Numbered from the stretch's first letter, positions 1-61,557 are shown. The stretch: DNA of 64,000 nt from Spirochaetia bacterium (GCA_965203055.1 OZ241863.1:2304001-2368000); one strand, 5' to 3'. A program made the numbers and translations. The notes: a model not told the origin generated them from the sequence alone.

Positions 1-266
1 CGCGCGGCGGCACCGTGGTCCAGATCGGGACGCTGCCGCAGCAGGTCACCGCGCCCTTCAATCTGGTCATGGCCAACGAGCTGCGGGTGCTCGGCAGCTT
101 CCGCTTCGCCGGCGGCTTCCAGGTCGGCGCGGCGCTGCTCGCCGCCGGCCGCATCGAGGTCGAATCGCTGATCAGCGCGGTGCTGCCGCTGGCGCAGGCG
201 CCGGCGGCCCTGGAACAGGCGGCCGGCGATCCGGCCGCGCTCAAGCTGCAGGTCAGCCGGCAGTGA
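1..266 (+). CDS. Zinc-binding (MDR) dehydrogenase, L-idonate/sorbitol dehydrogenase-like, C-terminal part (truncated by window edge)
   Basis: G.VVQIG...N.VMANELRVLGSFRF...LISAVLPLAQA..ALE.A......KLQ is a typical MDR C-terminus. Confidence 0.75.
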   Translation, partial: RGGTVVQIGTLPQQVTAPFNLVMANELRVLGSFRFAGGFQVGAALLAAGRIEVESLISAVLPLAQAPAALEQAAGDPAALKLQVSRQ

Positions 267-295
267 GCCGGCGGCGCGCCGCCTGCTGGCGCGCA

Positions 296-325
296 TTGCA
301 CGTGGGGCCGGCGGGCGGGTAGATT
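296..325 (+). promoter_or_regulatory. Putative sigma-70 promoter (TTGCAC-18-TAGATT)
   Basis: -35/-10 hexamers 12 nt upstream of ATG 338. Confidence 0.4.
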
Positions 326-337
326 GCGGCAACGAAT

Positions 338-1000
338 ATGCGTGTTGTTCGTACCGCCCTCTCCCTCCTCGTGCTGCTGCTGGCCGGCGCCGGCGCCGCG
401 GTCGCCGACGGCCCCTACCTGAACGCCACCGCCGGCGTGGCGCTGGTGCCCGGCCTCAACGACGCTCCGTTCAAGTTCCTCGGACAGGCGGCGGCCGCTG
501 TGACCGAAGACGAAGGCAAGGGTGACTGGGAGTTCGATGCCGGCTTCGTGGCCAGCGGCGCGGTCGGCTACCAGTTCGGCCCGGTGCGCGCCGACGCCGA
601 GTTTTCCTACCTGACGGCGAACTTCGCCTTCACCGCCAACGACGCGGCGAAGGACGACAACCTCACGGCCCTGCTGCTGCTGGCCAACTTCTGGTACGAC
701 GTAGAGATCGGCGGCATCGTGGCGCCCTACGCCGGGATCGGGGCCGGGGGCGCGAATCTGCTGGCCAAGCTGACCGCCGACCAGAACACCTGGTTCGACG
801 GCTCCGGCTGGGGCTTCGCCTTCCAGGCAGGCGCCGGCGTGCTCCTCAAACTGGTGCCCGGAATCTCCTTCGACCTCGGCTACCGGTTCTCCGGCTCCCT
901 GGCAACGGAGATATTCGACCGGGCCAATGCCGACCTGAGCAGCTTGAATCCCACCCTCATGGCCCATCGCATCCAGCTCGGCGTGCGCTTTCCCTCCTGA
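338..1000 (+). CDS. Outer-membrane beta-barrel protein (opacity/OmpA-like porin family)
   Basis: Signal peptide; alternating beta-strands; NxWYD, PYxGxGxG, FAFQAGAG, DLGYRF motifs; terminal LGVRF strand. Confidence 0.85.
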   Translation: MRVVRTALSLLVLLLAGAGAAVADGPYLNATAGVALVPGLNDAPFKFLGQAAAAVTEDEGKGDWEFDAGFVASGAVGYQFGPVRADAEFSYLTANFAFTANDAAKDDNLTALLLLANFWYDVEIGGIVAPYAGIGAGGANLLAKLTADQNTWFDGSGWGFAFQAGAGVLLKLVPGISFDLGYRFSGSLATEIFDRANADLSSLNPTLMAHRIQLGVRFPS

Positions 1001-1097
1001 GCCGCGGACCGGCCGCCGGCCCGGAGCAACCGGTTGCTACCCTATCTCAAACTCGGTACATTACGGCTTGATCCCACCCCAGCGAGGCATTATACCT

Positions 1098-1829
1098 ATG
1101 CGTTCAAGCGCCGCTCTCCTTACTATCGCGTTGTTGTCCGTTCCCGCGGTAGCCACCTTCTCCCAAAGCGCCATGATGATGGAAAGCTCCGGCGTCTACG
1201 TGAACGTCGGCGGGGCGCTGACCCTCGTTCCCGGCCTGACCGGGGTACCGTACGAGAAACTTGATTCTGACCTTAACCTTGAGCACATGACGGCGGACGG
1301 AAAGAAGACCAACTGGGACTTCGATCTCGGGTTCGGCGCCGACGGCGCCCTGGGCTACGACTTCGGCAGCTTCCGCGCCGACGTGGAGTTCACCTACCTG
1401 ACCGCGAGGTCCGTCTTCGACGTCGACAAGACCAAGCGGCGAGAGAACTCCGACAAGGCCGACGACACGCTCACCGTGCTGGCGGCGACCGCCAACGCCT
1501 GGTACGACCTGGACACCGGCACTGCCTGGTCGCCCTACATCGGGATCGGCGTCGGCGCCGCCAACGTCCAGGTGAAACTCGCCACCGGCGAGGGGACGGA
1601 GGACCTGCACTTCGATGGCAATGGGTGGGGATTCGCCTACCAAGCCGGGGTCGGCGTCGCCCTCGAGGTTCTGACCGGGTTCTCGCTCGTGGGCGGCTAC
1701 CAGTTCTTCGGCACGTTGCAGACGACGGTGACGGACTCAGACAACAATACCGCGCCTGCCGAGGCTGGCACCGTGAGTCCGATGCTGATGGCGCACGGGG
1801 TGCAACTCGGCATGCGGTTCCTGTTCTAG
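1098..1829 (+). CDS. Outer-membrane beta-barrel protein, paralog of upstream gene
   Basis: Signal peptide from ATG 1098; ANAWYD, PYIGIGVG, FAYQAGVG; C-terminal Phe (LGMRFLF). Confidence 0.85.
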   Translation: MRSSAALLTIALLSVPAVATFSQSAMMMESSGVYVNVGGALTLVPGLTGVPYEKLDSDLNLEHMTADGKKTNWDFDLGFGADGALGYDFGSFRADVEFTYLTARSVFDVDKTKRRENSDKADDTLTVLAATANAWYDLDTGTAWSPYIGIGVGAANVQVKLATGEGTEDLHFDGNGWGFAYQAGVGVALEVLTGFSLVGGYQFFGTLQTTVTDSDNNTAPAEAGTVSPMLMAHGVQLGMRFLF

Positions 1830-1882
1830 GACGGCGGAGCCGGAGCGCCGGCGGCGGCGCTTCAGCGCAGGCTGTCTGACCG

Positions 1883-2884
1883 TCAGCCGCGGCAGGCCAC
1901 TATCGGCAGGTCCTTCATCGCGTAGAGGCCGGGCGCCGCGGCCACCAGCGCCGGCGCGCTGTTGACGACGATGGCCGCGGTCGCGGTGTCGCCGGGGGTG
2001 CCTCCGGGGATGGTCGCCTCCAGATCGGGGGTGCCGGTAATGGCCACCGAATCGTGGGAACTCGGCGCGCCGACGTAGGCTTGGAACTCCAGCTCCACCA
2101 CCGGGCGCCCGGCGCATGACCCCACCGCGGACTGCTTCAAGCCGGCGACGCGGCCCACCGGCACCGCGGCGTGGGCGCTGCTCACCGCGCGATCCAGCAG
2201 CACCGGTTCGATCGACTCGCTGAAGTCGTCCAACTTCCAGCCGAATCCGGCCGCCAGCAGCGCCGCGGACTGCTCCAGGCCGACGTGGCCGAAGCCGCCG
2301 CCGGCCACCGCCGCGGCGAACTCCCGAGGCGACATGCCTACCCCGATCTTGCGCTGAAACGGCCCCCGCCGGGCGGCCGCGTCCTGCACCCGGGTCACGC
2401 GCACCGCGCGCACCTCGGCGCACACCGCCGACATGAACAGCGGCCAGGTATCCATCAGAAAGCCGGGGTTGACCCCGGTGCCGAGAATCGACACCCGGTG
2501 GCGGCGCGCCAGCTCCTGCAGCCGCGCCGCGGCCTCCGGGTCGCGGCCGCCGGGAAAGGCCAGCTCCTCGCAGGTGGACACCACGTTGGCCCCGGCGGCG
2601 GCGATCGCCGCAAGCTGATCGAACACCGCCGCCACCTGCGAACCGGTAGCATGAAACACCACCGCCGGGCGCAGCTCGCGCAGCGCCGCCGCGGCGTCGC
2701 CGCGCACCGTAACGCCGAGGCGGCCTCCCAGCCCCGCCACCTCGCCCAGATCGCGGCCCACCACCGCCGGGTCGACGTCGATCCCGCCCAGAACCGTGAA
2801 CTCCGGCCGCTGCGCCGCCAGACGCACGATGCTGCGCCCGATGGGACCGCAGCCAAACTGCACCACGCCAATCGTTCCTGCCAT
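1883..2884 (-). CDS. Dihydrodipicolinate reductase-like / 2,4-diaminopentanoate dehydrogenase family NAD(P)H oxidoreductase
   Basis: Rossmann GCGPIG; NVVSTCEEL, GTGVNPGFLMD, FQRKIGVG, GHVGL, PGDTATAA; start moved to ATG 2884. Confidence 0.85.
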   Translation of the reverse strand: MAGTIGVVQFGCGPIGRSIVRLAAQRPEFTVLGGIDVDPAVVGRDLGEVAGLGGRLGVTVRGDAAAALRELRPAVVFHATGSQVAAVFDQLAAIAAAGANVVSTCEELAFPGGRDPEAAARLQELARRHRVSILGTGVNPGFLMDTWPLFMSAVCAEVRAVRVTRVQDAAARRGPFQRKIGVGMSPREFAAAVAGGGFGHVGLEQSAALLAAGFGWKLDDFSESIEPVLLDRAVSSAHAAVPVGRVAGLKQSAVGSCAGRPVVELEFQAYVGAPSSHDSVAITGTPDLEATIPGGTPGDTATAAIVVNSAPALVAAAPGLYAMKDLPIVACRG

Positions 2885-2986
2885 GCGGCGCCCAGCATAG
2901 CAGGCTCCGCGCCGGCGTTGCACCGCCCCGGCCCGCGCCGTACCATGGCGGCCACCGATGAGCGCTACCCTTGCGGGAGGCCGGGC

Positions 2987-3757
2987 GTGAGCCGCCGGGC
3001 GCTGGTCATCCAGCACATTGCGGTGGAGACCCTGGGCGCCAACTTCGGCGCGGTGCTGGCCGAAGCGGGCTTCGAGACGATCCCGCTACTGGCGGCGGGC
3101 GCCGATAGTGATAGCGCGGGCCGGTTCGCCGCGCCGGAGCTGGCGGAGCTGGAGCTGATCGTCTCGCTGGGCGGCCCGCAGTCGGCCAATGACCGGACCC
3201 CGGCGCTGCAGCAGGAGATCGAATACCTGCGCGCGGCCGCCGCCGGGCAGCCGCCGGTGCCGGTGGTAGGAGTGTGTCTCGGCGCCCAACTGCTGGCCCG
3301 CGCGCTCGGCGGCCAAGTAGCGCCCACCGGCGGCTACCAGTTCGGGCTGCGCAAGATCGACGTGACCGCGGCGGGCGCCGTCGACCCGGCGTTCCGGGAA
3401 GTCGCCGTGCCGCTGGTGCCGACGCTGCACGGCGAGCGGTTCTCGGTGCCGCCGGGGGCCGCACTGCTGGCGACTGGCACCATGCTGCGGCGCGACGGGA
3501 GCTACGTCCGCATCCCCATGGCGTTCCGCTATGGCCTCAGCTACGGCTTCCAGTTCGAGCCGCAACTGACCTGCGCCGAGTTGCGCGTCTGGAACCGCGA
3601 GCTGGCCGGCGACTACGCGCTCATGGGCGAACGCTTCGACCCGCGCGAGGAGGCCGCCCGCAACCTGCGCGAGTTCACCGCATTCGCACCGTACCACGAA
3701 CGCCAGATGGCCCGCCTGCTCCGCGCCATCCTGCGCCAGGCAAACTACAACCGATGA
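2987..3757 (+). CDS. Class I glutamine amidotransferase (GMP synthase-like)
   Basis: LVIQH..E.LG, LGGPQSAND, GVCLGAQLLA nucleophile elbow; GGAGG before GTG 2987; catalytic His motif altered (QFEPQ). Confidence 0.85.
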   Translation: MSRRALVIQHIAVETLGANFGAVLAEAGFETIPLLAAGADSDSAGRFAAPELAELELIVSLGGPQSANDRTPALQQEIEYLRAAAAGQPPVPVVGVCLGAQLLARALGGQVAPTGGYQFGLRKIDVTAAGAVDPAFREVAVPLVPTLHGERFSVPPGAALLATGTMLRRDGSYVRIPMAFRYGLSYGFQFEPQLTCAELRVWNRELAGDYALMGERFDPREEAARNLREFTAFAPYHERQMARLLRAILRQANYNR

Positions 3758-3776: not shown

Positions 3777-6700
3777 ATGAACGGAGCCGATACTGTGGAA
3801 GGAGGAGAACACGTCAGGTTGAGAGGGAATCCCGGACGACACGGAATGACAACTGGCAAGACCCAAACCGTTGGAAGCTTTCTGATGGTCGAGGTCGCCT
3901 TCGGACCCAACGAACGGCAATTCAAGCGGTATGACTTGCTGGAACCTGTCGAGCCCGAAGAGGACATGCTGGACCTTCTCGCTACGGGTCGATGCGGCGG
4001 TCCGATCGATCTCCGGCGCGTATTGACGCTGGCGAAAGTCAAGGGCGACCTCACGAATGTGTTCTATTCGATGGAGGCCAGCAATACTGACTTCTATCCG
4101 CACCAATTCAAACCAGTTCTGAAGTTTATCGAGTCGACTGTAGGGCGGCTACTCATCGCCGACGAGGTTGGTCTGGGCAAGACGATTGAGTCAATCTACA
4201 TCTGGAAAGAGCTGCAGGCACGGGAAGACGCACGACGACTGCTCATTATAGTCCCTGCAATGCTGAGGCAAAAATGGCGAGACGATTTGCAACAGCGCTT
4301 TGGTATCTCAGCTGAAATCATCCGCGCCAAGGAATTGGTTGATAAGGTCGAAAGTTTTTCACAGCGACGACTCATCAATCATACATTTACATTGATCACC
4401 AGCCTTGAAGGATTGCGAACTCCAAGAGACTTTCATGATGAAGACAACACTAGCCCTCGGGCCGTGTTCGGCCGCCTCATGGATCGAAACACAGCGACCG
4501 ATGATCTTGCGTTGTTCGATCTCACAATTATCGATGAAGCGCATTATTTGAGGAATCCACAGACGGCAAGCAATCGTCTGGGTCGATTGGTGCGCGATGC
4601 ATCGCGTAACCTTGTGCTGCTGACTGCCACACCAATCCAGATCAAGACCGGAAATCTCTATCAGCTGCTTCGCCTGGTAGATGAGGAACAGTTTTTCCAG
4701 GATGGCTTGTTCGAAGATATGCTGCAAGCCAATGCACCCATTATTCGTGCGCTCCGATCGATTTGGCGTATCCCTCCGGAAATAGAAAACGCTCGAGAAG
4801 GTATAGCGGATGCGCTCGCTAACCGCTACTTTGCCAATGACCCGATCCTCGGCAGAGCAGCTGAAAAAATATCGGACGCCACTGACGATCCAGCGGCACG
4901 GGTTGAACTTGGAAGACTGCTCGAATCCCGGTCTCTTCTTGGCCAGTACATGACCCGCAGTCGAAAACGGGAGGTCCTCAAGCGGCGAGTCGAGCGCGCC
5001 GCGCAGGTGTTACACGTGTCCTTTAGTTCTCAGGAACGGTCGGTATATAACACAATAACACGGAAGATCCGCGAACGCATGGCCGAAACAGAGGGAATGG
5101 CGACGTTCGCACTGTGCACGCGCCAACGACAGATGGCAAGCTGCCTGGTTGCGGCGCTTGAGCGTTGGCGCGAATGGGATCTGATAGAGGAAGTAATGTC
5201 GGAGGATATAGGATCATCGTTTCGACAAGAAAACACTCATATGGATCAAGAAGACGCTCATATAGATAACGAATTACTGAGCGAAGAGATCCTCGCTGAC
5301 ATAGATATCAGGGATTTGGAGAGGGTTGATTCCAAATACCTACGGCTGCGTGAATTCTTGCGCAACGAGTTGTCGGAGCGTCCGGCAGATAAGATAGTGA
5401 TGTTCTCATTTTTCCGCGGTACACTGGCATATTTGCAGAAGCGGTTGGAGCAAGATGGCTTGCAGACGGCTCTGATCATGGGAGGTATGGGAGACGAAAA
5501 GCAGAACGTACTGCGACGGTTTGCGTCGTCTAGTGGACCATCGATCTTGTTGTCGTCGGAAATCGGCAGTGAAGGAATCGACCTTCAGTTTTGTCGTCTT
5601 GTAGTGAACTACGACTTGCCGTGGAACCCCATGAAAGTCGAGCAGCGTATCGGCCGCTTGGATCGTCTTGGGCAGACGGCGGATAAGATATCGATCGTCA
5701 ACTTGGCGCTGCAGGACACGATAGAAGACAAGATCCTGTTGCGGCTATATGACCGGATTGATCTTTTTAGGGATAGCATCGGAGATCTCGAAGAGATTCT
5801 AGGGGAGATCACAGAGCAACTCATGGTCAAGCTGTTGGCGCCGGACCTTAGCGATGAGCAGAGGGACAGATTGGCGCGGGAAAGTGAGCTTGCCATCGTC
5901 AACAAACGTAAGGAACAGGAGCGGCTTGAGAGTGAAGCGGTCAATCTCATTGGATTCACGGATCATATACTTGATAGCGTCACGGAGACTCACGCGCAGC
6001 GTCGGTGGATCAGCGGGGGCGAGCTTATGGCGTTGGTGGATGACTTCTTTGCACGTCATTATCCCGGCACGCAGATCAGTCGCCTTTCTGGTGACCTAAT
6101 GGCGGCAAGAGTGGACCTTTCTATCGAGGCTCGTGCTGATCTTGCCGCCTTTATCAGTGCCTCGCGGCCGGTGGAACCGACCGGGTTGCACAGGCGAGTA
6201 TCAACTTGCCTTTTTGACCCGCGTCGACCAGGAATCGGCACCCGTATCGAGCGAGTCGACGCGACCCATCCGCTAATTCAATGGATATGTAGTAGGCTGG
6301 AAAGTAGTGCCATATACCGGGTATCGGCGGTCGATCTTTGCCGCCTCAGGACAAGCGTCGGTCCCGGGAAGTACACGTTCGCAGTACATAGATGGGAGTT
6401 TACGGGTTTGCGTGCGCGACGTGTGCTGAGCTTCAGAGCCGCCGATTTGGCACGTAGCCATGTGCTGGATGCGGAATTGTCTGAGGGACTGGTGGTAGCT
6501 GCGTCAAGGTACGGAGCGATGTTGACCAATGTGGAGCATGCCATTGGTGATCTCGACGTGATGGCGGCTGTAGAACGCTGTGAAGAATCGCTCTACAGTG
6601 AGTACGAGCAGTTTGTGCATGATTTCGAAGCCGAGAATGAACTGCGGTGTAATACTCAGGAAATGAGCGCACGGAGATTCTCAGATCGAAGAATCCGTGA

Positions 6701-6881
6701 ACTTGAAGATCGGCTGCGGCGATTTAGAGACAACGATCAGGCGCACCTGATACCGATGACAGAAGGCTTGTTACGGAGAGAGAGAGTACAACTTGAAGCG
6801 AAGCTCCGGAAGGTGAAGGAACGGCGCAATACCGACCCGACGGTGGAGCCGTTGGCCGTCGGCATTATCAGGGTCAGGTAA
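3777..6881 (+). CDS. SNF2-family (RapA/DrmD-like) helicase
   Basis: LIADEVGLGKT Walker A, DEAH, LLTATP, SEGIDLQ, NYDLPWNP, EQRIGRLDRLGQ; C-terminal coiled coil; visibly lower GC than flanks. Confidence 0.93.
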   Translation: MNGADTVEGGEHVRLRGNPGRHGMTTGKTQTVGSFLMVEVAFGPNERQFKRYDLLEPVEPEEDMLDLLATGRCGGPIDLRRVLTLAKVKGDLTNVFYSMEASNTDFYPHQFKPVLKFIESTVGRLLIADEVGLGKTIESIYIWKELQAREDARRLLIIVPAMLRQKWRDDLQQRFGISAEIIRAKELVDKVESFSQRRLINHTFTLITSLEGLRTPRDFHDEDNTSPRAVFGRLMDRNTATDDLALFDLTIIDEAHYLRNPQTASNRLGRLVRDASRNLVLLTATPIQIKTGNLYQLLRLVDEEQFFQDGLFEDMLQANAPIIRALRSIWRIPPEIENAREGIADALANRYFANDPILGRAAEKISDATDDPAARVELGRLLESRSLLGQYMTRSRKREVLKRRVERAAQVLHVSFSSQERSVYNTITRKIRERMAETEGMATFALCTRQRQMASCLVAALERWREWDLIEEVMSEDIGSSFRQENTHMDQEDAHIDNELLSEEILADIDIRDLERVDSKYLRLREFLRNELSERPADKIVMFSFFRGTLAYLQKRLEQDGLQTALIMGGMGDEKQNVLRRFASSSGPSILLSSEIGSEGIDLQFCRLVVNYDLPWNPMKVEQRIGRLDRLGQTADKISIVNLALQDTIEDKILLRLYDRIDLFRDSIGDLEEILGEITEQLMVKLLAPDLSDEQRDRLARESELAIVNKRKEQERLESEAVNLIGFTDHILDSVTETHAQRRWISGGELMALVDDFFARHYPGTQISRLSGDLMAARVDLSIEARADLAAFISASRPVEPTGLHRRVSTCLFDPRRPGIGTRIERVDATHPLIQWICSRLESSAIYRVSAVDLCRLRTSVGPGKYTFAVHRWEFTGLRARRVLSFRAADLARSHVLDAELSEGLVVAASRYGAMLTNVEHAIGDLDVMAAVERCEESLYSEYEQFVHDFEAENELRCNTQEMSARRFSDRRIRELEDRLRRFRDNDQAHLIPMTEGLLRRERVQLEAKLRKVKERRNTDPTVEPLAVGIIRVR

Positions 6882-6882
6882 C

Positions 6883-8178
6883 GTGCGTATGAACCGCCCG
6901 GAACGACGTCGAAGACGTTTTCGTGTAGAGCCGTTGCATGTCAATCTTGGTATTGACTTTGGTACAAGCTACACCAAGGTCTGTTATCGAGATGTCGGTT
7001 CTGATAAGTCCGGTGTCCTTACCTTCGAAGGTGGACCATACTTACCTTCGATTGTGCTCATTGGTGAAAATGGCACGCTAAGCACCCCATTAGCCAATAA
7101 CGGTCGAAGTTCGACGGAAGTAGCATTTCTGAAGATGCGGATAGGTGAATACACTAATTCGCAAGATTCTATGTTCGTACAGGCGTTGTCCAGCTACTAT
7201 CTTGCCGAAATCATTCGTGGTGCAATGGACAGATTCAGGATTCAGGAGTCCGAATTGTCTGATCGACGACAGATTAGATGGTCGGCCAATATTGGAGTTC
7301 CGGTAGACCACTATGACTCACCAAAGTTAGTGATATTCAGAAAGGTATTCGCGATAGCGTGGATGTGGGCGGTATCGAACGGTGTCCCTACTACAGTCCA
7401 AGGTGCGATCGAACAATATCAGATTGGGGAAGGAGAGGTGAACCTGGCAGCCACGGATTGTCATGCAGTACCGGAGATCGTTGCGGCGGTATGGTCGTTC
7501 GTTACATCGCGTGCAGCACGGCCCGGAATATACACCTATTTCGACATCGGTGGAGGTACTCTTGATGGCGTCTGCTTCGGGTACGAGAACAGCAAAGGAG
7601 CTCGCCTTATTCGCTGTTACTCGGGCAAGGTGGCTCCGTTAGGCGTCAGTTTGCTTACGCATGGTCTGCGCCGTCCCGGGGGCGGGAACATTGAGAGAAT
7701 GCTCACTGCAGATTCGCTTCCATCGGCCTACATCCTTAATCATCTTGCGAAATACGAGAACCAAATTAGGACGCTTGTTGCAGAGATCGTCATGACTGCT
7801 AAGTGCAAGATTTGGGGAGGATTCAGGGGGATTTACCTGGAAGATAGTGTGGATCTACTTCCCATCTTTCTTGGAGGTGGAGGATCTCGTTCCGCGTGGT
7901 ACCAATTGGTCATTAAGAGTACCTACGGAAGTCGTCAGCTCGACAGAGCCGGGATCCCTCGCTTCGATCTGAAGGAGGTTCCTAAGCCGCCCGACCTAGA
8001 GATGAACAGCCTTTCTGATGACAATATTTTTTCGCGGTTTACTATTTCCTATGGTCTTTCCGTGCCAGCCGGCGAGACGCCGAATTTCTTCTTACCTGGT
8101 GGCGCTTATCCAATCCCGCCTAGTCAGAAGCCGAACGATATCCCTCCGTTCGAAACACACAAAGATTTGTACGAATAG
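6883..8178 (+). CDS. Actin-like/Hsp70-fold (ASKHA) ATPase of unknown function
   Basis: Phosphate-1 LGIDFGTSYTKV, NIGVP, connect-1 VPEIVAA, phosphate-2 FDIGGGTLDG, adenosine IFLGGGGS; starts 1 nt after helicase stop; no Hsp70 substrate-binding domain. Confidence 0.75.
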   Translation: MRMNRPERRRRRFRVEPLHVNLGIDFGTSYTKVCYRDVGSDKSGVLTFEGGPYLPSIVLIGENGTLSTPLANNGRSSTEVAFLKMRIGEYTNSQDSMFVQALSSYYLAEIIRGAMDRFRIQESELSDRRQIRWSANIGVPVDHYDSPKLVIFRKVFAIAWMWAVSNGVPTTVQGAIEQYQIGEGEVNLAATDCHAVPEIVAAVWSFVTSRAARPGIYTYFDIGGGTLDGVCFGYENSKGARLIRCYSGKVAPLGVSLLTHGLRRPGGGNIERMLTADSLPSAYILNHLAKYENQIRTLVAEIVMTAKCKIWGGFRGIYLEDSVDLLPIFLGGGGSRSAWYQLVIKSTYGSRQLDRAGIPRFDLKEVPKPPDLEMNSLSDDNIFSRFTISYGLSVPAGETPNFFLPGGAYPIPPSQKPNDIPPFETHKDLYE

Positions 8179-8567
8179 CTGCGGCGATGTATCGCTACAT
8201 GCGCGGAGACAAGCAAGCGCATCGTCCGGCTACTGTCCGAGCGTTGAGTTGCATTTTGGTTACGGCCCCGTGTCCTGCCACCGTGGACCCAAAGGGGAAC
8301 GCATCGAGTCCAAAGCGCACGGCGCAGATGATCGACAGGACGGGCGGCGTTTGGCCAAGACCAAACGGTGCGGCTTGTTTACGGCGACCTGCACCGGGAA
8401 TGGTGGATCGGGGACATGCGTCTGCCGTACCTACGCTCGGCTCCTCATGCGCTGATCGTACCTACAGTCGAGCCGTGGCTGCCTACGGACCACTCAAGGA
8501 TGGAATCATCCTGTACGGGCTCGCGAGGGTATTGACCAGCGCCGCGCGCTAGGCGACGGTTGGGGTC

Positions 8568-10217
8568 ATGGAACGCGTCGCGCCCCGTTCGCCCGTCCTG
8601 CTCAGCGCCGAGCAGGTCCGCCAGTTCATCGCCGACGGCTATCTCGTGCTGCAGCCGTCGTTGCCGGCCAACCTGCACCGCGCCATCTGCCGGCGGCTTG
8701 CGGCGGCGATTCCGGCGGACGACAATCCCGGCAACAACATCCTGCCGCTGGTGCCGGAGATGCGCCACGTGCTGGAGGCGCCGGAAGTGCGCGGCGCCCT
8801 GCTCAGCCTGCTCGGTCCCGGCTACTTCGAGCATCCGCACCGCTATTGCCACATCGAAGCGCCGCAGTCCTCCGACGGCCTCGACTACCCCGCCAAGCTG
8901 GCCGCCAACAGCCACCAGGACGCCTACACGCCGCTCGACCGCCCGCGCCACCACCTGCTCCGCTACCTGCGGCTCATGTACTACCCGCAGGACACGCCGC
9001 AGGAGCTGGGCCCGACTCACGTCATTCCCGGCACTCAATTCAACGCCGGGCTGAACGACGCCGAGCGCGCGCGGCCGCTGCCGGTGCGCGGCGGCGCCGG
9101 CACGGTGAGTCTGACCCACTTCGACGTGGGACATGCCGCCGGGGTCAACTTCGGCGCGCAACGGCGCTTCATGGTGAAGTTCATCTTCATGCGCGCCGCG
9201 GCGCCGCAGGCCAACGGCTGGGCGGGGCCGGAGTGGGCCTGGACCCGCCCGGAGCAGAGCGCCGCGCCGGAGCGGCTGGAGCTCGCCTGGGCGCACCTCT
9301 GGGACTGGCTGCGCGGCGCGGAGCGGTACGCCAGCCTGAAGTCCGGAGCGCTGACCAACGGCGCGCAGGCCGATGTTGCCGGCCTGAGCGTGGCCGAGCT
9401 GAGCGCGCGTCTGGCCGCCGAGGCCGACAGTGCCTCGCGGATAGCGGCCGCGCATGCCCTGGCCGCCCGCGGCGCCGCGGCCGAGACGGCGGTACCGGCC
9501 CTGACCGCGGCCCTCAACCGCGATCCCGACCCGGTGCGCGTCGCCGCGACCTACGCTCTCGGAGCGATCGGCGCGCCGGCGGTGGAGCCGCTGGCCGCCC
9601 TGCTGCGCGGCTCCGGCGCCGCCCTGCCCCACCTGCTGCGCGGGTTCGGCCGCCGCAACTCCGGCGCGCTGCTCATGGACGACGCCGGATACGCGCTGGC
9701 GGCGGTCGGCGCGCCGGCGCTTCCGGCCCTGGTCGAGTTGCTGCGGGACGACAGCGAGTGGGCGCGCGTCAACGCCGCCTTCGCCCTCGGCGAGATGGAC
9801 GCCGCCGCCCGGGACGCGGTGCCCGCGCTGGTGGACGCGCTGGAGGATGAATCGCAGTACGTAGTGCGCGCCGCCGCGGACGCGCTGGGGGCGGTGGGCG
9901 CTGCCGAGGCCGCGGCTTCCCTCGGCGCCCTGCTGCACGCCGAACGTCCCGGCTGGGACGCGGTCCAGCAGCGCGGCTGGTGCATCCGCGACCAGGTGCG
10001 GGTCAACGCGGCCACCGCGCTCGCGCGCCTCGGACCGGGCGCCGCCGCCGCCGAGGCCGACCTGATCGCCGCGCTCGACGACCCCTGCGGCCAGGTTACG
10101 ACCTTCGTGCTGACCGCGCTGCGCCGCCTCGGCACGCCCGCGGCCATGGACGCCGCCCTCGCCATGCTCAACGCCCAACGCTGGGACCCCTCCCTCAATG
10201 CCCCCCACCGCTTCTGA
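8568..10217 (+). CDS. PhyH-like Fe(II)/2-oxoglutarate dioxygenase fused to HEAT/PBS-lyase repeats
   Basis: LSAEQVRQFIADGYL, HQD, YYPQD...GPT..IPGT, distal His; C-terminal repeats of VPAL..AL.D....VR..AA.ALG. Confidence 0.88.
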   Translation: MERVAPRSPVLLSAEQVRQFIADGYLVLQPSLPANLHRAICRRLAAAIPADDNPGNNILPLVPEMRHVLEAPEVRGALLSLLGPGYFEHPHRYCHIEAPQSSDGLDYPAKLAANSHQDAYTPLDRPRHHLLRYLRLMYYPQDTPQELGPTHVIPGTQFNAGLNDAERARPLPVRGGAGTVSLTHFDVGHAAGVNFGAQRRFMVKFIFMRAAAPQANGWAGPEWAWTRPEQSAAPERLELAWAHLWDWLRGAERYASLKSGALTNGAQADVAGLSVAELSARLAAEADSASRIAAAHALAARGAAAETAVPALTAALNRDPDPVRVAATYALGAIGAPAVEPLAALLRGSGAALPHLLRGFGRRNSGALLMDDAGYALAAVGAPALPALVELLRDDSEWARVNAAFALGEMDAAARDAVPALVDALEDESQYVVRAAADALGAVGAAEAAASLGALLHAERPGWDAVQQRGWCIRDQVRVNAATALARLGPGAAAAEADLIAALDDPCGQVTTFVLTALRRLGTPAAMDAALAMLNAQRWDPSLNAPHRF

Positions 10218-10369
10218 CCGGAGCCGGGCCCCTTACGCCGCAGTTATGGTTTTTTGGCGTCGGCAGTTGACGAAAATTGCATGGAAGTGTATCCTCTCCT
10301 TCATTACTACCCATCAAGTTCGCCCCTCGATATTTGCAAGGGGTTCAGGCGGCTTGATCAATACCACCC

Positions 10370-10394
10370 CAGGGACGCCCTTGTGGCGTCCCTG
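10370..10394. repeat. Perfect 10-bp hairpin (REP-like or terminator)
   Basis: CAGGGACGCC-cttgt-GGCGTCCCTG followed by CATTTT. Confidence 0.55.
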
Positions 10395-10525
10395 CATTTT
10401 GCACCATGGACCTGCCCACTTCCGAGCACCGTGTCCGCGTACGAGTATTCGTCGACTTCTGGAACTTCCAAGCAATGCTGTCTTCCAATTTGCTGCTATG
10501 TGCGGTATCATCGGCGGAGGTGCAA

Positions 10526-10792
10526 ATGAAAATAAAACCATGGAAACAAGCGACTGAGGATGCAATTGTCCGTATCTGTCGTAGAACAGGTACGAAGATA
10601 TTCGACTTCAGTAGCCTTGTCAGGCAAGAGCTACCCCAGATTGTCAAGGAGACCCAGACAAAAGGAAAGACACCGGAAAAGTCGCTATCGAAGTATCTGC
10701 AGGACTTGAAAGGAAGGAAAATAGAGTTTGTCGATCATCAAGGCACGTACAAGTTGATAGACGATGATCTCGTGGCGAGATGTTCCAGATGA
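10526..10792 (+). CDS. Small winged-helix protein resembling DpnI-type/HNH-associated wH domains (88 aa)
   Basis: GGAGG RBS then ATG 10526; G.TPEKSLSKYLQDL...IEF...GTY pattern; AT-rich. Confidence 0.55.
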   Translation: MKIKPWKQATEDAIVRICRRTGTKIFDFSSLVRQELPQIVKETQTKGKTPEKSLSKYLQDLKGRKIEFVDHQGTYKLIDDDLVARCSR

Positions 10793-10944
10793 GCCTCAGG
10801 TGATGGGCCGGGCCGCTGGTGTGGATTCTTTATGATGAGGCGCTACTTCCCGCAGCCGATTATGGCGTGCCGCATACGCGGGGTAGACGGGCGGCGGGGC
10901 AGCGTGTAAGGTGATCTAACCAACCGGACCACCTCACCTCAGGT

Positions 10945-11075
10945 AGCGGCCGGAACGGCCGGCGGTAGCTTTCGACATTGAGTTCGAAGATGGTCGCGCG
11001 ATGCACCAGCCGATCGACCGCCGACCGGGTCATGGTGGGTCGGGGAAGATGGTGTCCCACTTGCCGAACGGCGCG
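10945..11075 (-). pseudogene. istB: IS21-family IstB ATPase C-terminal remnant (frameshifted)
   Basis: PFGKWD.IF..PTMT..AVDRLVHRATIFELNVESYRR. Confidence 0.85.
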
Positions 11076-11108: not shown

Positions 11109-11420
11109 CTATTGGCGGGGCGCGGTCTGCTCCGTGCCGTTGGCGTCGCGTTTGAGGGTGCGGTAGGTGGACTCGTCGATGCCGGTGGCGGAGTGGATTA
11201 CCGGCCACCCGATCCCGGCGCGCAGGAGCCCGTCGATGGTCTCCAGCCGGCCCTCCTGACGGCCTTCCAACCGGCCTTTCAACTCGCCCGCCTGTTGGCC
11301 TTCCTGCCGGCCCTTCAACTCACCTTCCTGGCGCCCTTTCAACTCGCCTTCCTGTTGGCCTTGCAACCGGCCTTCTTGGCGGAGCTCAGCTTCCCAGCGA
11401 TCGATCTTCTCTAACAGCAT
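11109..11420 (-). CDS. Putative intragenic small Rpn (RpnS-like antitoxin), 103 aa, in frame within rpn
   Basis: GAGGAGG (11429-11435) 8 nt upstream of in-frame ATG 11420 (MLLEKIDRWE...). Confidence 0.65.
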   Translation of the reverse strand: MLLEKIDRWEAELRQEGRLQGQQEGELKGRQEGELKGRQEGQQAGELKGRLEGRQEGRLETIDGLLRAGIGWPVIHSATGIDESTYRTLKRDANGTEQTAPRQ

Positions 11421-12143
11421 TGCGCTTGCCTCCTCGTAGTCGCGAATCGACGGCAACTCCATGTCCCACTTCTGGCCCAGGGCGTCCAGCCACAGGTCGA
11501 AACTCTTCGTCAGTTCCGGCTCGTCCTCGGCGGCGAGCCACTGCCCCAACTCCCGCACCCGCTCCGCCAGCTCCCCAGCGCGCAGGCTGCGCTCCACTTC
11601 CGCCATCCAGGTTATCAGGTTCGGGCGCGGCAGGTCTTCCGCTGCCATCGCTACCAGATCAACCACGTCATAGCTCAGCGCGAGCTGCGCCGGGCCGTCG
11701 TGTTCCAGACTCGTCGGCACCAACTCCGCCAGCGACTGCGGCGCGTCCCACCGGGTGGCGCCGTTGTACAGCACGACGTGCAGCACCTGGTCGACGGTGT
11801 CGCCCTTGCGCCATCGGTGGTCGCGGTACTTCCGCTGGTACATCAGGCTGCTGTAGTTCAGGAACCGCATCGGCATCGAGTGGTCCACCGACGACTGATG
11901 CTCGATCAGCACCTGGATGGTCTGCGCGCTGCCGTCGGCGGCGCGGCGGTCGATCGACCAGACGACGTCGCTGAGCCGCCGGCGCAGGTAGTCGGTGACG
12001 TACTCGGCCGGACCTTCGCGCAGCGAGTCGAAGATGAGCGAGTCAGCCCAACCGGGAGGGCGCAGGCGGGCGATGAAGCCGAGGATCAGGTCCTTGACGG
12101 TGCGCCGGTGGTCGAGCAGGCGCTTGTACGATTCGTCGTTCAT
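11109..12143 (-). CDS. Rpn/YhgA-like recombination-promoting PD-(D/E)XK nuclease (Transposase_31 family)
   Basis: D.SYKRLL, RR.SDVVW, VLIEHQSSVDHSMPMRFLNY, VVLYNG..RW; C-terminal (xxEG)n repeats; ATG 12143. Confidence 0.9.
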   Translation of the reverse strand: MNDESYKRLLDHRRTVKDLILGFIARLRPPGWADSLIFDSLREGPAEYVTDYLRRRLSDVVWSIDRRAADGSAQTIQVLIEHQSSVDHSMPMRFLNYSSLMYQRKYRDHRWRKGDTVDQVLHVVLYNGATRWDAPQSLAELVPTSLEHDGPAQLALSYDVVDLVAMAAEDLPRPNLITWMAEVERSLRAGELAERVRELGQWLAAEDEPELTKSFDLWLDALGQKWDMELPSIRDYEEASAMLLEKIDRWEAELRQEGRLQGQQEGELKGRQEGELKGRQEGQQAGELKGRLEGRQEGRLETIDGLLRAGIGWPVIHSATGIDESTYRTLKRDANGTEQTAPRQ

Positions 12144-12309
12144 GGAGTCTCCGTCGATGGCGGCGCCGTGCCGGCCGCGGCCGGGGAGCCGGGTAGTGCA
12201 GCGGCGGTGCCATTCTCTGACCCTACAACGGCGCCGCGTCGGCCGCGCTTGCATTTGGCGGCGCGGCGCGTTCGCCGTGGTGGACGCGCCTCCGGCCCGG
12301 CGGCACGGA

Positions 12310-12987: not shown

Positions 12988-13215
12988 ATGAATCTTACGC
13001 TTTCACTGGACGACAAGGTGGTGGCCGAGGCTCGAAAGTCGGCCGCGGCACTCGGGTTGAGTCTCAATCAGGCGGTGCGGGATTACTTGACAAGCCTCGC
13101 GGGCCGAAGCTCCGCCGACGATGAAATCGCCGAAGTCCGACGCCTCTCCGAGCTGGCGTGCGGCGACCGCGCCGGCTGGCGCTTCGACCGCGACGAGCTG
13201 CATCAGCGTGCGTAG
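12988..13215 (+). CDS. vapB: RHH-type antitoxin (VapB, DUF6364-like)
   Basis: MNLTLSLDD.VV..AR..A...G.SLNQ.VRDYL...WRFDRDELH.R; overlaps PIN gene start. Confidence 0.85.
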   Translation: MNLTLSLDDKVVAEARKSAAALGLSLNQAVRDYLTSLAGRSSADDEIAEVRRLSELACGDRAGWRFDRDELHQRA

Positions 13216-13579
13216 CTTCCTGGACAGCAACGTGCTGGCCTACACCGACGATGCCGGCGACAGAGCGAAGCAAGCGAAGGCGTTGGAGCTGTACCAGACC
13301 TGCCGCAGCAGCGGCAGCGGCGTGATCTCGATGCAGGTCCTGCAAGAGTATTTCGTGACCGCGACTCGCAAGCTCGGTGTGGCCACCGCAGTGGCGAGGC
13401 GCAAAGTGGAGCTGTTCGCGAAGATGGATGTCGTGATTCCGCAGACCGAAGACATCCTGGCGGCCATCGATCTGGTGCGCCTGCACTCGGTGTCGTTCTG
13501 GGACGCACTGATTGTGCGCGCCGCGCAGGTGTCACGATGTTCGGTACTCTACTCGGATGTAGCGCGACAATCAGGATGA
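13208..13579 (+). pseudogene. vapC: PIN-domain toxin VapC, C-terminus replaced by IS21 end
   Basis: FLDSNVLAY, S.QVLQE, SFWDALI..AA....C.VLYS; expected SED...NPF tail absent, IS end starts at 13558. Confidence 0.82.
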
Positions 13580-18728: not shown

Positions 18729-19427
18729 TCATAGCGCAAGGTGGCGCTCCACCACCGCGCGGTTGGCCGGCCCCGCGCTCCCCTCGTGCACGATGGTGCC
18801 CTGGTCCATGATGTACACCCGGTCGGCGAGCCGCAGGGCGAAGTCGAGCGACTGCTCCACGAGCAGGATCGACAGCTCGCCCTGCGCCCGGATCTCGCGC
18901 ACCGCCTGTTCGATCTCACTGACGATCGACGGCTGAATCCCCTCGGTCGGCTCGTCGAGCAGCAGCAGGCGCGGTTGGGTGAGCAGCACCCGGGCCACCG
19001 CCAACTGCTGCTGCTGGCCGCCGCTCAGGTCGCCGCCGCGGCGCGGCAGCATGTCGGTCAACTCCGGGAACAGCTCCAGCACCCAGGCCGGCGCCCGGCT
19101 GCGCGCGCCGCCGCGCGCCTCCAGCCCCAGAAACAGGTTTTCGGCCACCGTCAGAAAGGGGAAGATCTCGCGCCCCTGGGGAACGTAGCCGATCCCGGCG
19201 CGGGAGCGGCGGTCGGCGCGCCATCCGGTGACCTCGCCGCCGTTGAAGGCGATGCTGCCCGCGCGCGCCTCCAGGATGCCCACCAGCGTCTTCATGAGCG
19301 TCGACTTGCCGACCCCGTTGCGGCCCATCACCGCCACCACCTCGCCGGCCGCCACCTGCAGATCGAGGTCGCGCACCACGATGGAACTGCCGTAGCCGGC
19401 CTGCAGGCCGCGCGTTTCAAGCAGCAT
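18729..19427 (-). CDS. urtE: Urea ABC transporter ATP-binding subunit
   Basis: GRNGVGKST, LSGGQQQQLA, LDEPTEGIQPSI; operon context. Confidence 0.93.
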   Translation of the reverse strand: MLLETRGLQAGYGSSIVVRDLDLQVAAGEVVAVMGRNGVGKSTLMKTLVGILEARAGSIAFNGGEVTGWRADRRSRAGIGYVPQGREIFPFLTVAENLFLGLEARGGARSRAPAWVLELFPELTDMLPRRGGDLSGGQQQQLAVARVLLTQPRLLLLDEPTEGIQPSIVSEIEQAVREIRAQGELSILLVEQSLDFALRLADRVYIMDQGTIVHEGSAGPANRAVVERHLAL

Positions 19428-31583: not shown

Positions 31584-31662
31584 CGCCCCGGTACATGGTC
31601 CGATTCTCCCCGGCGGCCGTTACGGGGTATATTCGAGCAGCGCAGGTGCCGGCGCCGCACCT

Positions 31663-47450: not shown

Positions 47451-48374
47451 TCATATCGGCAATGTCGTTGCGCGGGCAGCCGCATCCGTCCACTCCTTCA
47501 TCTTCTCTAACACGTCGTTGCTCACGTTATCGCAGAAATCGACGATGCGGCACCGATCGAACAGCAAACCCGCATCGATCGCAATATCATACCGATTGAC
47601 TCTCGACAAAGCCTCCGCAACAAAGAACATCCGTACCGGAACGAACGCCGGAAACGAATGAAGCCACTTTTTGCAGAACGAATCAGGTTGTAGATCAGCA
47701 AAGTTATCTCGGAAATTAGTTCCCGTCTTGCACTGACCGAACGCAATGAGCTTTCCCGGCAGACGGTCGGCGAAATGCTTCCATGCCACAATGTCCAATT
47801 TGCCGTCGTTTGCCGTAGTCCGACCACTTCCGTGACGATAGAAACCATCACCCTCCTCCAGCCTGCCACACAGGTCATTGATCTTGTTCTCGAATCCGAC
47901 TCCTGAAGGGCCGTGACCGAAGACCATGCTTTCAGCACGCGCGCCAAGGTATTCACGTGCGGCCTCCGCGGATAGATCTTCCAAGAGTGATGCTCCGTCG
48001 ATACCAGCGTGGCGCCGATTGCTTTGCATATTCAGTCTCGTCGCCAAGAGCAGATAACGGTAGACAGCGTATCGCTGATTTCCGCTGCCTCCGGACATCT
48101 TCATGGTATATCCGTACTGGTCGATCGAAAACGGGTATCCTCCTCGACATGCTTCCCTGCGCCGTTCGATCTCGGAATATGCGCCTTCGACTACCTCCGT
48201 TATTGCCTCCTCCTCCGGCACGCCTTCCGAGTAGTCGTTCTCGTCGAGCCTGCCGAGGGCTGCGCGGACCTCGTTGAGCGACGTGCCGCCGCCTCTCCAG
48301 CAAACCAACTCGGCGAAGTCGGCAACCTCGTAGGCAGGCGCGCGCGGGGATGGCAGGCCCGGCCACTTGAACAT
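47451..48374 (-). CDS. Putative restriction-endonuclease-fold (PD-(D/E)XK, D...QxK) protein
   Basis: DGKLDIVAW.....GKLIAFGQCKTG; TGATG-coupled to ParB-like gene; lower GC. Confidence 0.65.
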   Translation of the reverse strand: MFKWPGLPSPRAPAYEVADFAELVCWRGGGTSLNEVRAALGRLDENDYSEGVPEEEAITEVVEGAYSEIERRREACRGGYPFSIDQYGYTMKMSGGSGNQRYAVYRYLLLATRLNMQSNRRHAGIDGASLLEDLSAEAAREYLGARAESMVFGHGPSGVGFENKINDLCGRLEEGDGFYRHGSGRTTANDGKLDIVAWKHFADRLPGKLIAFGQCKTGTNFRDNFADLQPDSFCKKWLHSFPAFVPVRMFFVAEALSRVNRYDIAIDAGLLFDRCRIVDFCDNVSNDVLEKMKEWTDAAARATTLPI

Positions 48375-49477
48375 CAGCCGGCCTCGGCTACCCGCCGCCG
48401 CCTTCGCCGGTGTCCCTTTCGGTGCATCTCTTCGTAGAGATCGTTCGCAAGGTCCGCCACCGCATCGGCAACGCTGAGCAGCCTCTCGGAACCATCGTAT
48501 CCGGTCGAGAGCATACCGCGAGCCCTCTGGAGATTGCGCTTCGCCGCAAACAAGGATTCCTCGAAGACCGTCGATGACGGACGACTCTGTTCAAAGGCGG
48601 ACGCCAAGTCGTTGTTGGCGCGAAGCGCTGCGACCGATTCCCTGCTGCTCAAGACCGATTCAAGTTGGCGAAGGTGCGGATTCTGGGTTTCTACGACGGG
48701 AGGCCGCTCTTGCTTCTTGCTGCCGTACATCCACAGGAAGAGCTCGCCGAGCTCGGTACTCCGCTCAGCAGGAACCGGCTCAGGTTCGTCCCAAGAATCG
48801 GATTGCAAACCGATGAAGTCGCATATTCCTGAATAATTCAGACCGGTGTAGAGATGAGAGAACGAGAAATGGTTTCGCCATCGATCGTCGCGACTGAACA
48901 CCTGCATCCGCTCGGCCTGCTCGATCACCATGAGGCCACGGAACAGCCGCTGAACGGTTCGGTGTGTGTCGCCGATCTGCTTGGCGATATCTTCAAGCCG
49001 GACGCCAAAACGTCGATGTACGTCGGCGATGTACTGGGCCTTCGCATAGCTGCTCCATTTTGCCGGACCGTTTACATGCTTGAAACCGAGATAGCGCCAC
49101 GAATCTCCGCGGGTGCCGATTACCACGGGAAGCTCGCTGAGTTCCTGCTTCTCTTGCGCGGTAATCTCTGGAATGTCGGCCGTCGAGAACTCGAACTCCT
49201 CGGGAGTCAACAAGATGCGGACTGCGGCAAGCCGGCGGTTGCCTTCGATGACTACGTTCTTCCCGTTCTCTCGATCCACGATCAGCGGCTCATGGCTGAA
49301 GAACCCGCTGGCCGCAATGGAAAGTACCAGCTCGCGTACGTCCATTGCATCCCATAGCACTTGTATGACCTCTGATTCCGTTGAATCTTCGGTCAGTTCG
49401 AACTCAGGTAGCCGAGGGTTCTTGGGATCGAAGCGGAGCGCCGATACGGGCAACCGTTCGACCGGATTGTCTTCCAT
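48374..49477 (-). CDS. ParB/Srx N-terminal domain protein
   Basis: L.FDPKNPRL, L.LSI..SGF..HEPLIV, VVIEGNRRLAA, H..G..KW, HTH-like IAKQIG; GGAGG before ATG 49477. Confidence 0.85.
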   Translation of the reverse strand: MEDNPVERLPVSALRFDPKNPRLPEFELTEDSTESEVIQVLWDAMDVRELVLSIAASGFFSHEPLIVDRENGKNVVIEGNRRLAAVRILLTPEEFEFSTADIPEITAQEKQELSELPVVIGTRGDSWRYLGFKHVNGPAKWSSYAKAQYIADVHRRFGVRLEDIAKQIGDTHRTVQRLFRGLMVIEQAERMQVFSRDDRWRNHFSFSHLYTGLNYSGICDFIGLQSDSWDEPEPVPAERSTELGELFLWMYGSKKQERPPVVETQNPHLRQLESVLSSRESVAALRANNDLASAFEQSRPSSTVFEESLFAAKRNLQRARGMLSTGYDGSERLLSVADAVADLANDLYEEMHRKGHRRRRRRVAEAG

Positions 49478-49590
49478 GAGACCTCCGTTACTGCCCGCAA
49501 CCATGCGGGCGACAATATGCGGCGGCGGTCCCGGCGCGGGGTACTACTATACCGCGGCGGGGTAGCTGCCGGCGTAATCGGTGGCGGCGT

Positions 49591-55283: not shown

Positions 55284-55381
55284 CGTCACGCTGTCGGCTT
55301 GTGGTCCCCACGACCGACGGTACGGCGAGATGCTCGCCGCGGCCGGCGGCGACCGTCGTTCCGTCGTGTCTCCGGTCGATC

Positions 55382-55751: not shown

Positions 55752-55817
55752 CAGCACCTCCTGCTACTATAGCCCAATAACGCGCCGGAGGCGCTGGCGC
55801 TTCAATCCGTCCATCCG

Positions 55818-61462: not shown

Positions 61463-61557
61463 GGCTGTGAGTCTCCTTGCCTGGGAAGTGGCAGGCGCAT
61501 CCAAAAGAGCCGCTCGGGTGGGGACGATCGCGGGGAGACGGCGCCGTGCCGTGCGGC

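Follow-up and report, generated by a model that had tools for sequence, protein, structure and literature searches.

A horizontally acquired SNF2 and Hsp70-like ATPase gene pair in a Spirochaetia bacterium, a candidate anti-phage cassette

The bacterial defence systems BREX, DISARM and Hma have SNF2 helicases of the RapA type among their core components, and how these systems act remains unclear. RapA itself is a chromosomal housekeeping protein. In eukaryotes, INO80, SWR1 and SWI/SNF combine an SNF2 motor, which bears a long helix, with an obligate ASKHA subunit, actin or an actin-related protein (Arp). BrxHII of type-3 BREX and the helicases of the DUF499-centred "BR" (Hma) systems were reported to contain a single Tudor domain, a Swi2/Snf2 motor and an inactive restriction-endonuclease-like domain, and their C-terminal domain was described as carrying two long helices between strands 4 and 5, "paralleling RapA" (PMC12839542); the words Hsp70, DnaK and ASKHA are absent from the main text of that paper. 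CnuD of CoCoNuT was described as Hsp70-like, with degenerate Walker-like motifs (PMC11090510), and HSP70 proteins, including forms that consist of the nucleotide-binding domain (NBD) alone, were placed in predicted GTPase-centric conflict systems (PMC7159879). Here, we describe a block of two genes at positions 3777-8178 of a 64,000-nt stretch of DNA from a Spirochaetia bacterium (GCA_965203055.1, OZ241863.1:2304001-2368000; the whole stretch is referred to as the window), in which a gene for an SNF2 protein (gene 1) is followed by a gene for an Hsp70-like ATPase (gene 2).

The genomic context of the pair in many bacteria points to phage defence as the likeliest role of this horizontally acquired two-gene cassette, an assignment that we consider to have about an even chance of being right. 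The pair is best read as a mobile, nuclease-free, two-ATPase defence module, or as an accessory of BREX-family systems; the role in defence is what we infer from context, and the mechanism given below is a proposal. No description of an SNF2 and Hsp70-like pair was found in full-text literature searches, in which the supplements of the closest two papers were not covered, and the statement of the preliminary description of this DNA, that no named system has this composition, is upheld to that extent.

The two genes and their products

Gene 1 (3777..6881, plus strand) starts with ATG and encodes 1034 aa, and gene 2 (6883..8178, plus strand) starts with GTG and encodes 431 aa; both frames are open throughout. 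A single base separates the TAA stop codon of gene 1 (6879-6881) from the GTG at 6883, and gene 2 has a further in-frame ATG at 6889. The guanine-plus-cytosine (GC) content of 3777-8178 is 52.2%, compared with 70.5% for 1-3757, 74.8% for 8568-10217 and 69.2% for the entire window, and the GC content at third codon positions (GC3) is 0.57 in gene 1 and 0.51 in gene 2, compared with 0.84-0.94 in the neighbouring genes. The left edge of the block is sharp: 19 nt separate the stop codon of a GATase-like open reading frame (ORF) from the ATG at 3777. At the right edge, about 390 nt of intermediate GC content without a recognisable gene (8179..8567) end at a HEAT-repeat ORF that begins at 8568; a 121-aa ORF within this segment (8187-8552) had no family match in Pfam, PADLOC or NCBIfam. 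The edges of the block bear no convincing repeats, direct or inverted, no tRNA gene lies near it (the sole one found is at 31662), and a scan for promoters and terminators gave match counts no better than chance. Integrase, methylase and nuclease domains were found in neither protein with the same three databases. The block is a horizontally acquired, mobile two-gene unit, and it is read as mobile because its GC content is 52%, against about 70% for the genome. These results bear out the preliminary description, which had reported two intact genes 1 nt apart, a block of lower GC content among high-GC genes, and the lack of any recognisable integrase, methylase or nuclease.

Gene 1 encodes a RapA/BrxHII-type SNF2 ATPase without a nuclease domain. 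Its protein matches the Pfam domains SNF2-rel_dom (E=7.5e-27) and Helicase_C (E=3.4e-19), and the motor core, delimited by these domains and by motifs, spans 4161..5675 on the plus strand. The full superfamily 2 motif set that had been claimed for gene 1 is present, with Walker A (DEVGLGKT, residues 129-136, 4161-4184), DEAH (residues 253-256, 4533-4544), motif III (residues 281-286, 4617-4634) and motif VI (residues 623-633, 5643-5675) all intact, so that the motor is apparently catalytically competent. The beta-rich N-terminus and the long helical tail noted earlier were likewise recovered. The N-terminal domain (residues 1-105, 3777..4091) is conserved in the family alignment and is kept in the motor-less variants described below; by analogy with BrxHII it may be Tudor-like. 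A RapA-like C-terminal region (residues 700-1034, 5874..6878) was delimited by structure prediction and Foldseek. The strongest signature of its alignment is the family motif ExxDxxHPLIxW (residues 825-836, 6249-6284), and no nuclease motif is conserved in that alignment. The model of residues 700-1034, computed from an alignment of 49 family members (mean predicted local distance difference test score, pLDDT, 86.7), consists of an alpha/beta part, helices 928-985 and 989-1017, and a last strand, the two helices forming a long predicted hairpin (residues 928-1017, nt 6558-6827). Sequence profiles of the N-terminal and C-terminal domains, compared with PDB sequences, gave chance or coiled-coil matches, none of them significant for the N-terminal domain.

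The closest solved relative of gene 1 is RapA, both by sequence (E=7e-32, the next SNF2 protein being at 6e-18) and by fold. When the C-terminal model was compared with the PDB using Foldseek, four RapA chains were the sole significant matches (E=1.6e-6 to 2.3e-5, over alignments of about 300-310 columns), and the next match had E=0.087. This kinship is the starting point of a non-defence alternative, in which the pair would serve transcription or the recycling of RNA polymerase, as a RapA-like factor with a chaperone-like cofactor, or would maintain a mobile element, and would merely travel with genomic islands. The NCBIfam RapA equivalog NF003426 matches gene 1 with 165 bits, only core residues 97-701 being aligned, and its cut-off of 576 bits is far off; further evidence on this alternative comes from the distribution of the pair (see below).

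Models of defence helicases were also compared with gene 1. The DrmD model PDLC02623 of PADLOC-DB v2.0.0 matches it over nearly its full length (E=7e-275, residues 10-1019 on model positions 6-1014 of 1040), and the NCBIfam equivalog DISARM_DrmD (NF038317) aligns with residues 13-1021 at 409 bits, under a cut-off of 610. Other PADLOC matches are partial: BrxHI (E=2e-62), BrxHII (E=1e-41), HmaA (PDLC00659, E=1.8e-46, best stretch merely residues 518-687) and ZorD (E=8e-17, helicase C-lobe only, best stretch residues 536-668). The view of the pair as an undescribed system thus divides on this evidence: the subfamily of gene 1 is already covered full-length by PDLC02623, and gene 2 is unmatched. 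Annotation of the PADLOC type labels gene 1 an orphan DrmD and overlooks gene 2.

Gene 2 has no match at E<=0.1 in Pfam, NCBIfam or PADLOC. In a 90%-clustered protein collection, 270 relatives were found at E<=1e-3, none of which has a precomputed Pfam domain, and where names are given they read "hypothetical", bar one "Hsp70 family" entry. A 33-member profile, searched against 1.84 billion representatives, retrieved 2561 clusters (50% identity) at E<=1e-3, 1849 at E<=1e-10 and 454 at E<=1e-30; a protein atlas returned unnamed clusters and one cluster in which 12% of the members carry PF00012. The 33-sequence alignment revealed five conserved blocks, all on the plus strand: NLGIDFGTSxTK (N21, G23, D25, G27, T28, T31 and K32; 6943-6978), LKMRI (K84 and M85; 7129-7143), VPEIVAAV (E198 and A201, with P197 and A202 nearly invariant; 7468-7491), DIGGGTxDG (D221, G223, G225, D228 and G229, with T226 nearly invariant; 7537-7569) and GGGG (G331-G334; 7867-7887). 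Reading by eye, we take these to be the phosphate-1, catalytic-lysine, NEPTAAA-like, phosphate-2 and adenosine motifs of Hsp70. With these Hsp70-type motifs invariant or nearly so, the ATPase is apparently catalytically competent.

The predicted structure of gene 2 (pLDDT 82.2, predicted template-modelling score 0.83) was compared with known folds. DnaK/Hsp70 NBDs rank first in Foldseek (4b9q_B, E=1.6e-12), with query-normalised template-modelling scores of 0.45-0.52, 12-16% identity and alignments that cover the whole protein. In a viral structure library, Hsp70 homologues are again at the top (8e-12), and an actin-related protein comes no higher than rank 22; against PDB sequences, the profile matches human Hsp70 NBDs at a sub-threshold E of 0.24. 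On the strength of the model, gene 2 is an Hsp70-NBD-like ASKHA ATPase of an unnamed family, without a substrate-binding domain. The earlier reading of gene 2 as a protein with ASKHA motifs and no DnaK substrate domain is therefore retained, all of its 431 aa being NBD, and the suggestion that it is an actin-fold, polymerising partner is not favoured, since Hsp70 NBDs rank above actin-like folds in both structure libraries. Cyanobacterial homologues of gene 2 were observed to carry a repetitive coiled-coil N-extension of 350-1000 residues (for example L030:3112-5793, L047:8123-11332, and proteins P0172 and P0167); one source labels such a homologue "chromosome segregation ATPase", and RefSeq calls one 744-aa form "hypothetical protein".

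Linkage, distribution and genomic context of the pair

The linkage of the two genes was examined in a sample of one genome per species, which yielded 80 loci with a relative of gene 2, and a partner was sought in each by tblastn. The loci come from alpha- and gammaproteobacteria, cyanobacteria, spirochaetes, Binatia, Acidobacteria, Latescibacterota, Verrucomicrobia and a Bacteroidales metagenome-assembled genome. A relative of gene 1 is adjacent to that of gene 2, on the same strand, in 71 of the 80 loci; the order is SNF2 to ASKHA in 55 and ASKHA to SNF2 in 16, the latter mostly in cyanobacteria. In three further loci (L061, L063 and L071) the upstream gene is a motor-less derivative of gene 1, in four (L023, L054, L062 and L072) the contig ends are too close for the partner to be sought, and two (L025, with an ASKHA fragment, and L031) are exceptions without a partner. 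The question left by the preliminary description, whether homologues of the 431-aa protein always stand next to this SNF2 clade, can thus be answered largely in the affirmative. When every ORF of 90 aa or more in the 80 loci and in the first 20 kb of the window was clustered, two conserved families alone were obtained, present in 76 and 68 loci; all remaining clusters are antisense shadows of the pair genes or occur in at most eight loci. No third conserved gene was found beside the pair in this set, in keeping with the proposed two-component make-up.

Pairwise distances of the SNF2 and ASKHA proteins are strongly correlated (r=0.96 for 57 pairs, after removal of three near-duplicate loci), and none of 999 permutations reached this value. 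The ASKHA protein evolves faster, with a mean distance of 0.69 compared with 0.56 for the SNF2 protein. The correlation reflects inheritance as a unit; co-inherited neighbours would give the same result, so it is no sign of binding. Homologues of gene 2 were found in none of 50,697 phage records and in just 3 of 72,556 plasmid records. For the non-defence alternative introduced above, these numbers are unfavourable, as are the patchy, horizontally transferred distribution and low GC content, which are atypical of housekeeping factors, and the repeated embedding of the pair inside defence operons; what speaks for it is that the window pair and many of the cyanobacterial ones are flanked by non-defence genes. 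Taking both sides together, we regard a role outside defence as improbable.

The most frequent named neighbour is PDC-S68, an SF1 RecD-like helicase of about 1250 aa with an N-terminal region of about 600 aa that has no Pfam match. It adjoins the pair in 14 of the 80 loci (L002, L006-L010, L013, L017, L020, L026, L029, L049, L074 and L080), which come from two phyla, and is co-oriented with it in 13; in L010 it is a 672-aa fragment on the opposite strand. PDC-S68 lies downstream of the pair in alphaproteobacteria and upstream in Microvirga and Treponema, with short intergenic gaps. These features would fit a three-gene unit of PDC-S68, SNF2 and ASKHA proteins, of which the window pair would be an incomplete and perhaps inactive version. 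The remaining 66 loci lack PDC-S68, however, and PADLOC lists it as a single-gene phage-defence candidate. In the window, both genes are intact and no PDC-S68 gene or remnant was found, and there is a relative of 95% identity. A three-gene unit is accordingly very unlikely in our estimate. PDC-S68 was named in no paper in a full-text literature search.

The surroundings of the pair were scanned with PADLOC. On each flank, the closest two ORFs that reach 120 aa and do not overlap were taken, which gave 231 ORFs in 71 loci after exclusion of the duplicates L007 and L076 and of 16 references that were pieces of the pair or had been covered by an earlier scan. The matches are to single hidden Markov models and are not system calls. 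At E<=1e-15, 21 of 109 ORFs in a first batch and 28 of 122 in a second (one of them the L055 partner itself) were matched, giving 49 of 231 within two genes of the pair. Counted by locus, one or more ORFs within two of the pair match PADLOC in 32 of 72 cases, some generic-domain matches included. The proposed association with defence genes was thus observed in many genomes, the neighbours including parts of BREX, DISARM, Hma and CBASS. In L036 and L057, PglX precedes the pair, and PglZ and BrxL of BREX follow it. In L068, DrmB and DrmA, the pair on the opposite strand, RT_UG19, DrmMI and DrmD (PDLC02621) stand in a row, with DrmC further out. HmaB, HmaC, SNF2, ASKHA and PDC-S68 genes occur in that order in L008, L009 and L013, where the fetched 10 kb end at HmaB, and in L009 the gap between HmaC and the pair is 5 nt. 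L053 has a CBASS effector and cyclase on one side and DrmC on the other. Further neighbours are AbiEi/AbiEii (L015), AbiLi (L018), Dsr1 (L041), SspH/SspA (L060), ThsB (L037), and type III (L074) and type IV (L049) restriction enzymes; on a Leptolyngbya plasmid, type I-D cas1 and cas2 lie upstream of the pair and a transposase downstream.

Embedding of this kind could also mean that the pair is no system in its own right, and that methylation-based systems of the BREX family (BREX, DISARM and Hma/"BR") use it as an exchangeable helicase module, which would need a cognate methyltransferase and AAA+ ATPase encoded elsewhere. The architecture of gene 1 is common to BrxHII and the type-3 BR helicases, as far as these are described in PMC12839542, and the pair stands directly after HmaB-HmaC in three loci and within BREX in two. 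The window, moreover, carries a complete Hma ("type-1 BR") system on the minus strand, 41 kb from the pair (49591-59357), which could supply the cognate genes. It consists of HmaA, an SNF2 helicase with a C-terminal NOV_C nuclease domain (55818-59357; PDLC00659, E=1e-177, residues 84-1148), HmaB, a DUF1156 adenine methyltransferase (52476-55448), and HmaC, a DUF499 ATPase (49591-52479); its GC3 of 0.88-0.92 suggests that it is long resident. This Hma system thus brings its own helicase-nuclease. The DISARM locus L068 likewise encodes a DrmD of its own, with the pair on the other strand, and genes of BREX, DISARM or Hma lie within two ORFs of the pair in just some 6 of the 72 loci examined. The work that introduced "guilt by embedding" states that genes nested in such systems mostly act as defences in their own right, and 7 of 9 Hma-embedded candidates were reported there to be antiviral when tested (10.1101/2024.01.29.577857). 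With these points in mind, we consider the helicase-module account rather unlikely.

The preliminary description had further proposed that the pair might be a detached accessory of a Zorya-like locus. This proposal finds no support: the ZorD model fits the C-lobe only (E=8e-17), and ZorA, ZorB and ZorC were found neither in the window nor among 314 neighbour ORFs (231 near the pair and 83 further out). The pair may be the stand-alone module envisaged there; at some loci it is embedded in BREX, DISARM or Hma or joined to PDC-S68.

Proposed function and other features of the window

Under the preferred reading, in which the pair is a nuclease-free defence cassette, the Hsp70-like protein would dock on the N- and C-terminal non-motor domains of the SNF2 protein and, driven by ATP, gate the motor as a switch or sensor. 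Docking on these domains is proposed because motor-less partners keep them beside an ASKHA gene. In L061, L063 and L071, partners of 457-515 aa lie upstream of the ASKHA gene (L061:3362-4798, L063:8593-9966 and L071:8370-9917); the SNF2-family profile matches them through the N-domain (3-92), a RecA1 fragment and the C-domain (about 730-940), and they have no Walker A, DEAH, motif III or motif VI. A fourth partner, in L055 (7766-9985; counted among the 55 above), has 739 aa, a degenerate Walker A and no RecA2 lobe. All four come from cyanobacterial loci, and in all of them the RecA2 lobe is lost and the N- and C-domains are retained. The ExxDxxHPLIxW motif is present in three of the four, the L055 partner having no aligned residues there.

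Immunity would then arise from ATP-driven remodelling, in which phage replication or transcription complexes are stalled or evicted, much as RapA acts on RNA polymerase, and would involve no DNA cleavage; remodelling is proposed rather than cleavage because the pair has no nuclease. The cassette would work alone, as in the window, or be recruited into BREX, DISARM and Hma loci, sometimes joined by PDC-S68. Alternatively, the pair might lend its remodelling activity to co-resident BREX-family systems. Physical binding of the two proteins, their target and their mode of action are features that we infer. A bolder version of the proposal, to which we give a small chance, draws an analogy with eukaryotic remodellers and their actin/Arp subunits: the pair would be their bacterial counterpart, in which the ASKHA ATPase binds the SNF2 translocase at its helical part outside the motor and controls it, and this nuclease-free machine would strip or stall the replication or transcription complexes of phages. 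If so, it would be the first defence system to couple an Hsp70-type ATPase to a motor of the chromatin-remodeller type, and the motor-less cyanobacterial variants would represent a sensing core that works without translocation. If the pair protects alone, it would offer a minimal, tractable model of a motor that stops phages without a nuclease, and a chaperone-type ATPase would join the defence repertoire.

Several observations weigh against a defence role for the pair or against an obligate partnership of its proteins. Distal ORFs match PADLOC as often as proximal ones (18 of 83 outermost ORFs, 7-10 kb off, compared with 49 of 231, at E<=1e-15), a comparison for which there is no genome-wide background; there is no proximity gradient, and the regions are defence-rich across at least 10 kb. 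Most cyanobacterial loci have no PADLOC match among the four nearest ORFs, some matches are generic (mad3, HEAT-ARM, UvrD-like and LmuB-like coiled coil), and the immediate flanks of the pair in the window are non-defence genes. Neither protein bears a recognisable effector, nuclease or toxin domain. L025 and L031 have no partner gene, and a search for SNF2-ASKHA fusions gave none: what the long ASKHA relatives (764-1454 aa) carry is a repetitive coiled-coil N-extension and no SNF2 domain.

To the left of the pair, the window contains genes for two outer-membrane beta-barrel proteins, a diaminopentanoate-dehydrogenase-like gene and the GATase-like gene, and to the right, the HEAT-repeat gene, a small second low-GC patch, a YhgA-like transposase gene, a PIN-protein gene and urease genes; no methyltransferase or nuclease gene was found beside the pair. 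The HEAT-repeat ORF (8568-10217) was considered as a CnuD-like third component and rejected, as it has a GC content of 0.75 and is not conserved in other loci. The second low-GC patch (10250-11000, GC 0.49-0.53) contains a 128-aa ORF without a family match (10406-10792), and is followed by the YhgA-like Transposase_31 gene (11109-12254, minus strand) and the PIN-domain ORF (13121-13579). PADLOC matched 5 of the 42 other window ORFs at E<=1e-10, three of the five being the Hma locus. The PADLOC model PDLC04135 (mad3) matches an ORF beside the urease genes (18729-19427) and unrelated-looking ORFs in L025, L040, L061 and L063, always within about model positions 253-357; such generic-domain behaviour inflates per-gene defence counts. 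Adjoining the Hma locus on the minus strand are two ORFs (47451-49504) with GC3 of 0.64 and 0.68 and no Pfam match, one of which (376 aa) matches the PADLOC PD-Lambda-5_A and PDC-M38A ATPase models (E=3e-19); they may be a further small defence cassette. Two tandem EF-G-like GTPase genes lie at 59417-61504 and 61637-63661, also on the minus strand.

Comparison with described systems

Among the described systems, class 1 DISARM has a helicase, DrmD, whose resemblance to gene 1 (PDLC02623) is full-length and includes the N- and C-terminal regions. Gene 1 nevertheless lies below the NCBIfam DrmD cut-off (409 compared with 610 bits), and DrmA, DrmB (DUF1998), DrmC and DrmMI were found in none of the 42 other window ORFs; with the partner genes absent and the score below that cut-off, the pair is not DISARM. 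In the one complete DISARM locus at L068, the system's own DrmD is of the other subfamily (PDLC02621) and the pair is an opposite-strand insert. We know of no Hsp70-like component in DISARM.

The predicted model of gene 1 also displays the C-terminal features that PMC12839542 attributes to BrxHII of type-3 BREX and to the nuclease-less type-3 BR helicase. Unlike these systems, the window pair has no adjoining BrxC/DUF499 ATPase, methyltransferase, PglZ or iSTAND gene, and among the other loci a DUF499 ATPase and a methyltransferase adjoin it only in L008, L009 and L013. The HmaA model matches gene 1 in part only (E=1.8e-46), compared with E=1e-177 for the HmaA of the window. Among solved structures, RapA is closest to gene 1 by sequence and by C-terminal fold, but gene 1 is not RapA proper: it scores 165 bits, far below the equivalog cut-off of 576, and, to our knowledge, RapA has no Hsp70-like partner.

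Gene 2 is no canonical Hsp70: it shares the fold and the Hsp70-type motifs of Hsp70/DnaK NBDs, and differs in having no substrate-binding domain and no PF00012 match at E<=0.1. The helix of INO80, SWR1 and SWI/SNF is the N-terminal helicase-SANT-associated (HSA) helix, whereas that of gene 1 is C-terminal, and gene 2 is nearer to Hsp70 than to actin. Of the Hsp70-like proteins placed in conflict systems, CnuD is partnered by McrBC and has degenerate motifs (PMC11090510), and those of the GTPase systems are partnered by a GTPase (PMC7159879), whereas the partner of gene 2 is an SNF2 helicase and its motifs are conserved. PDC-S68, although a frequent neighbour of the pair, is a separate protein family. 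Compared with these systems, the pair combines a helicase of the BREX/DISARM family with a new dedicated partner, and we regard it as a good candidate for an anti-phage system of a new kind of composition.

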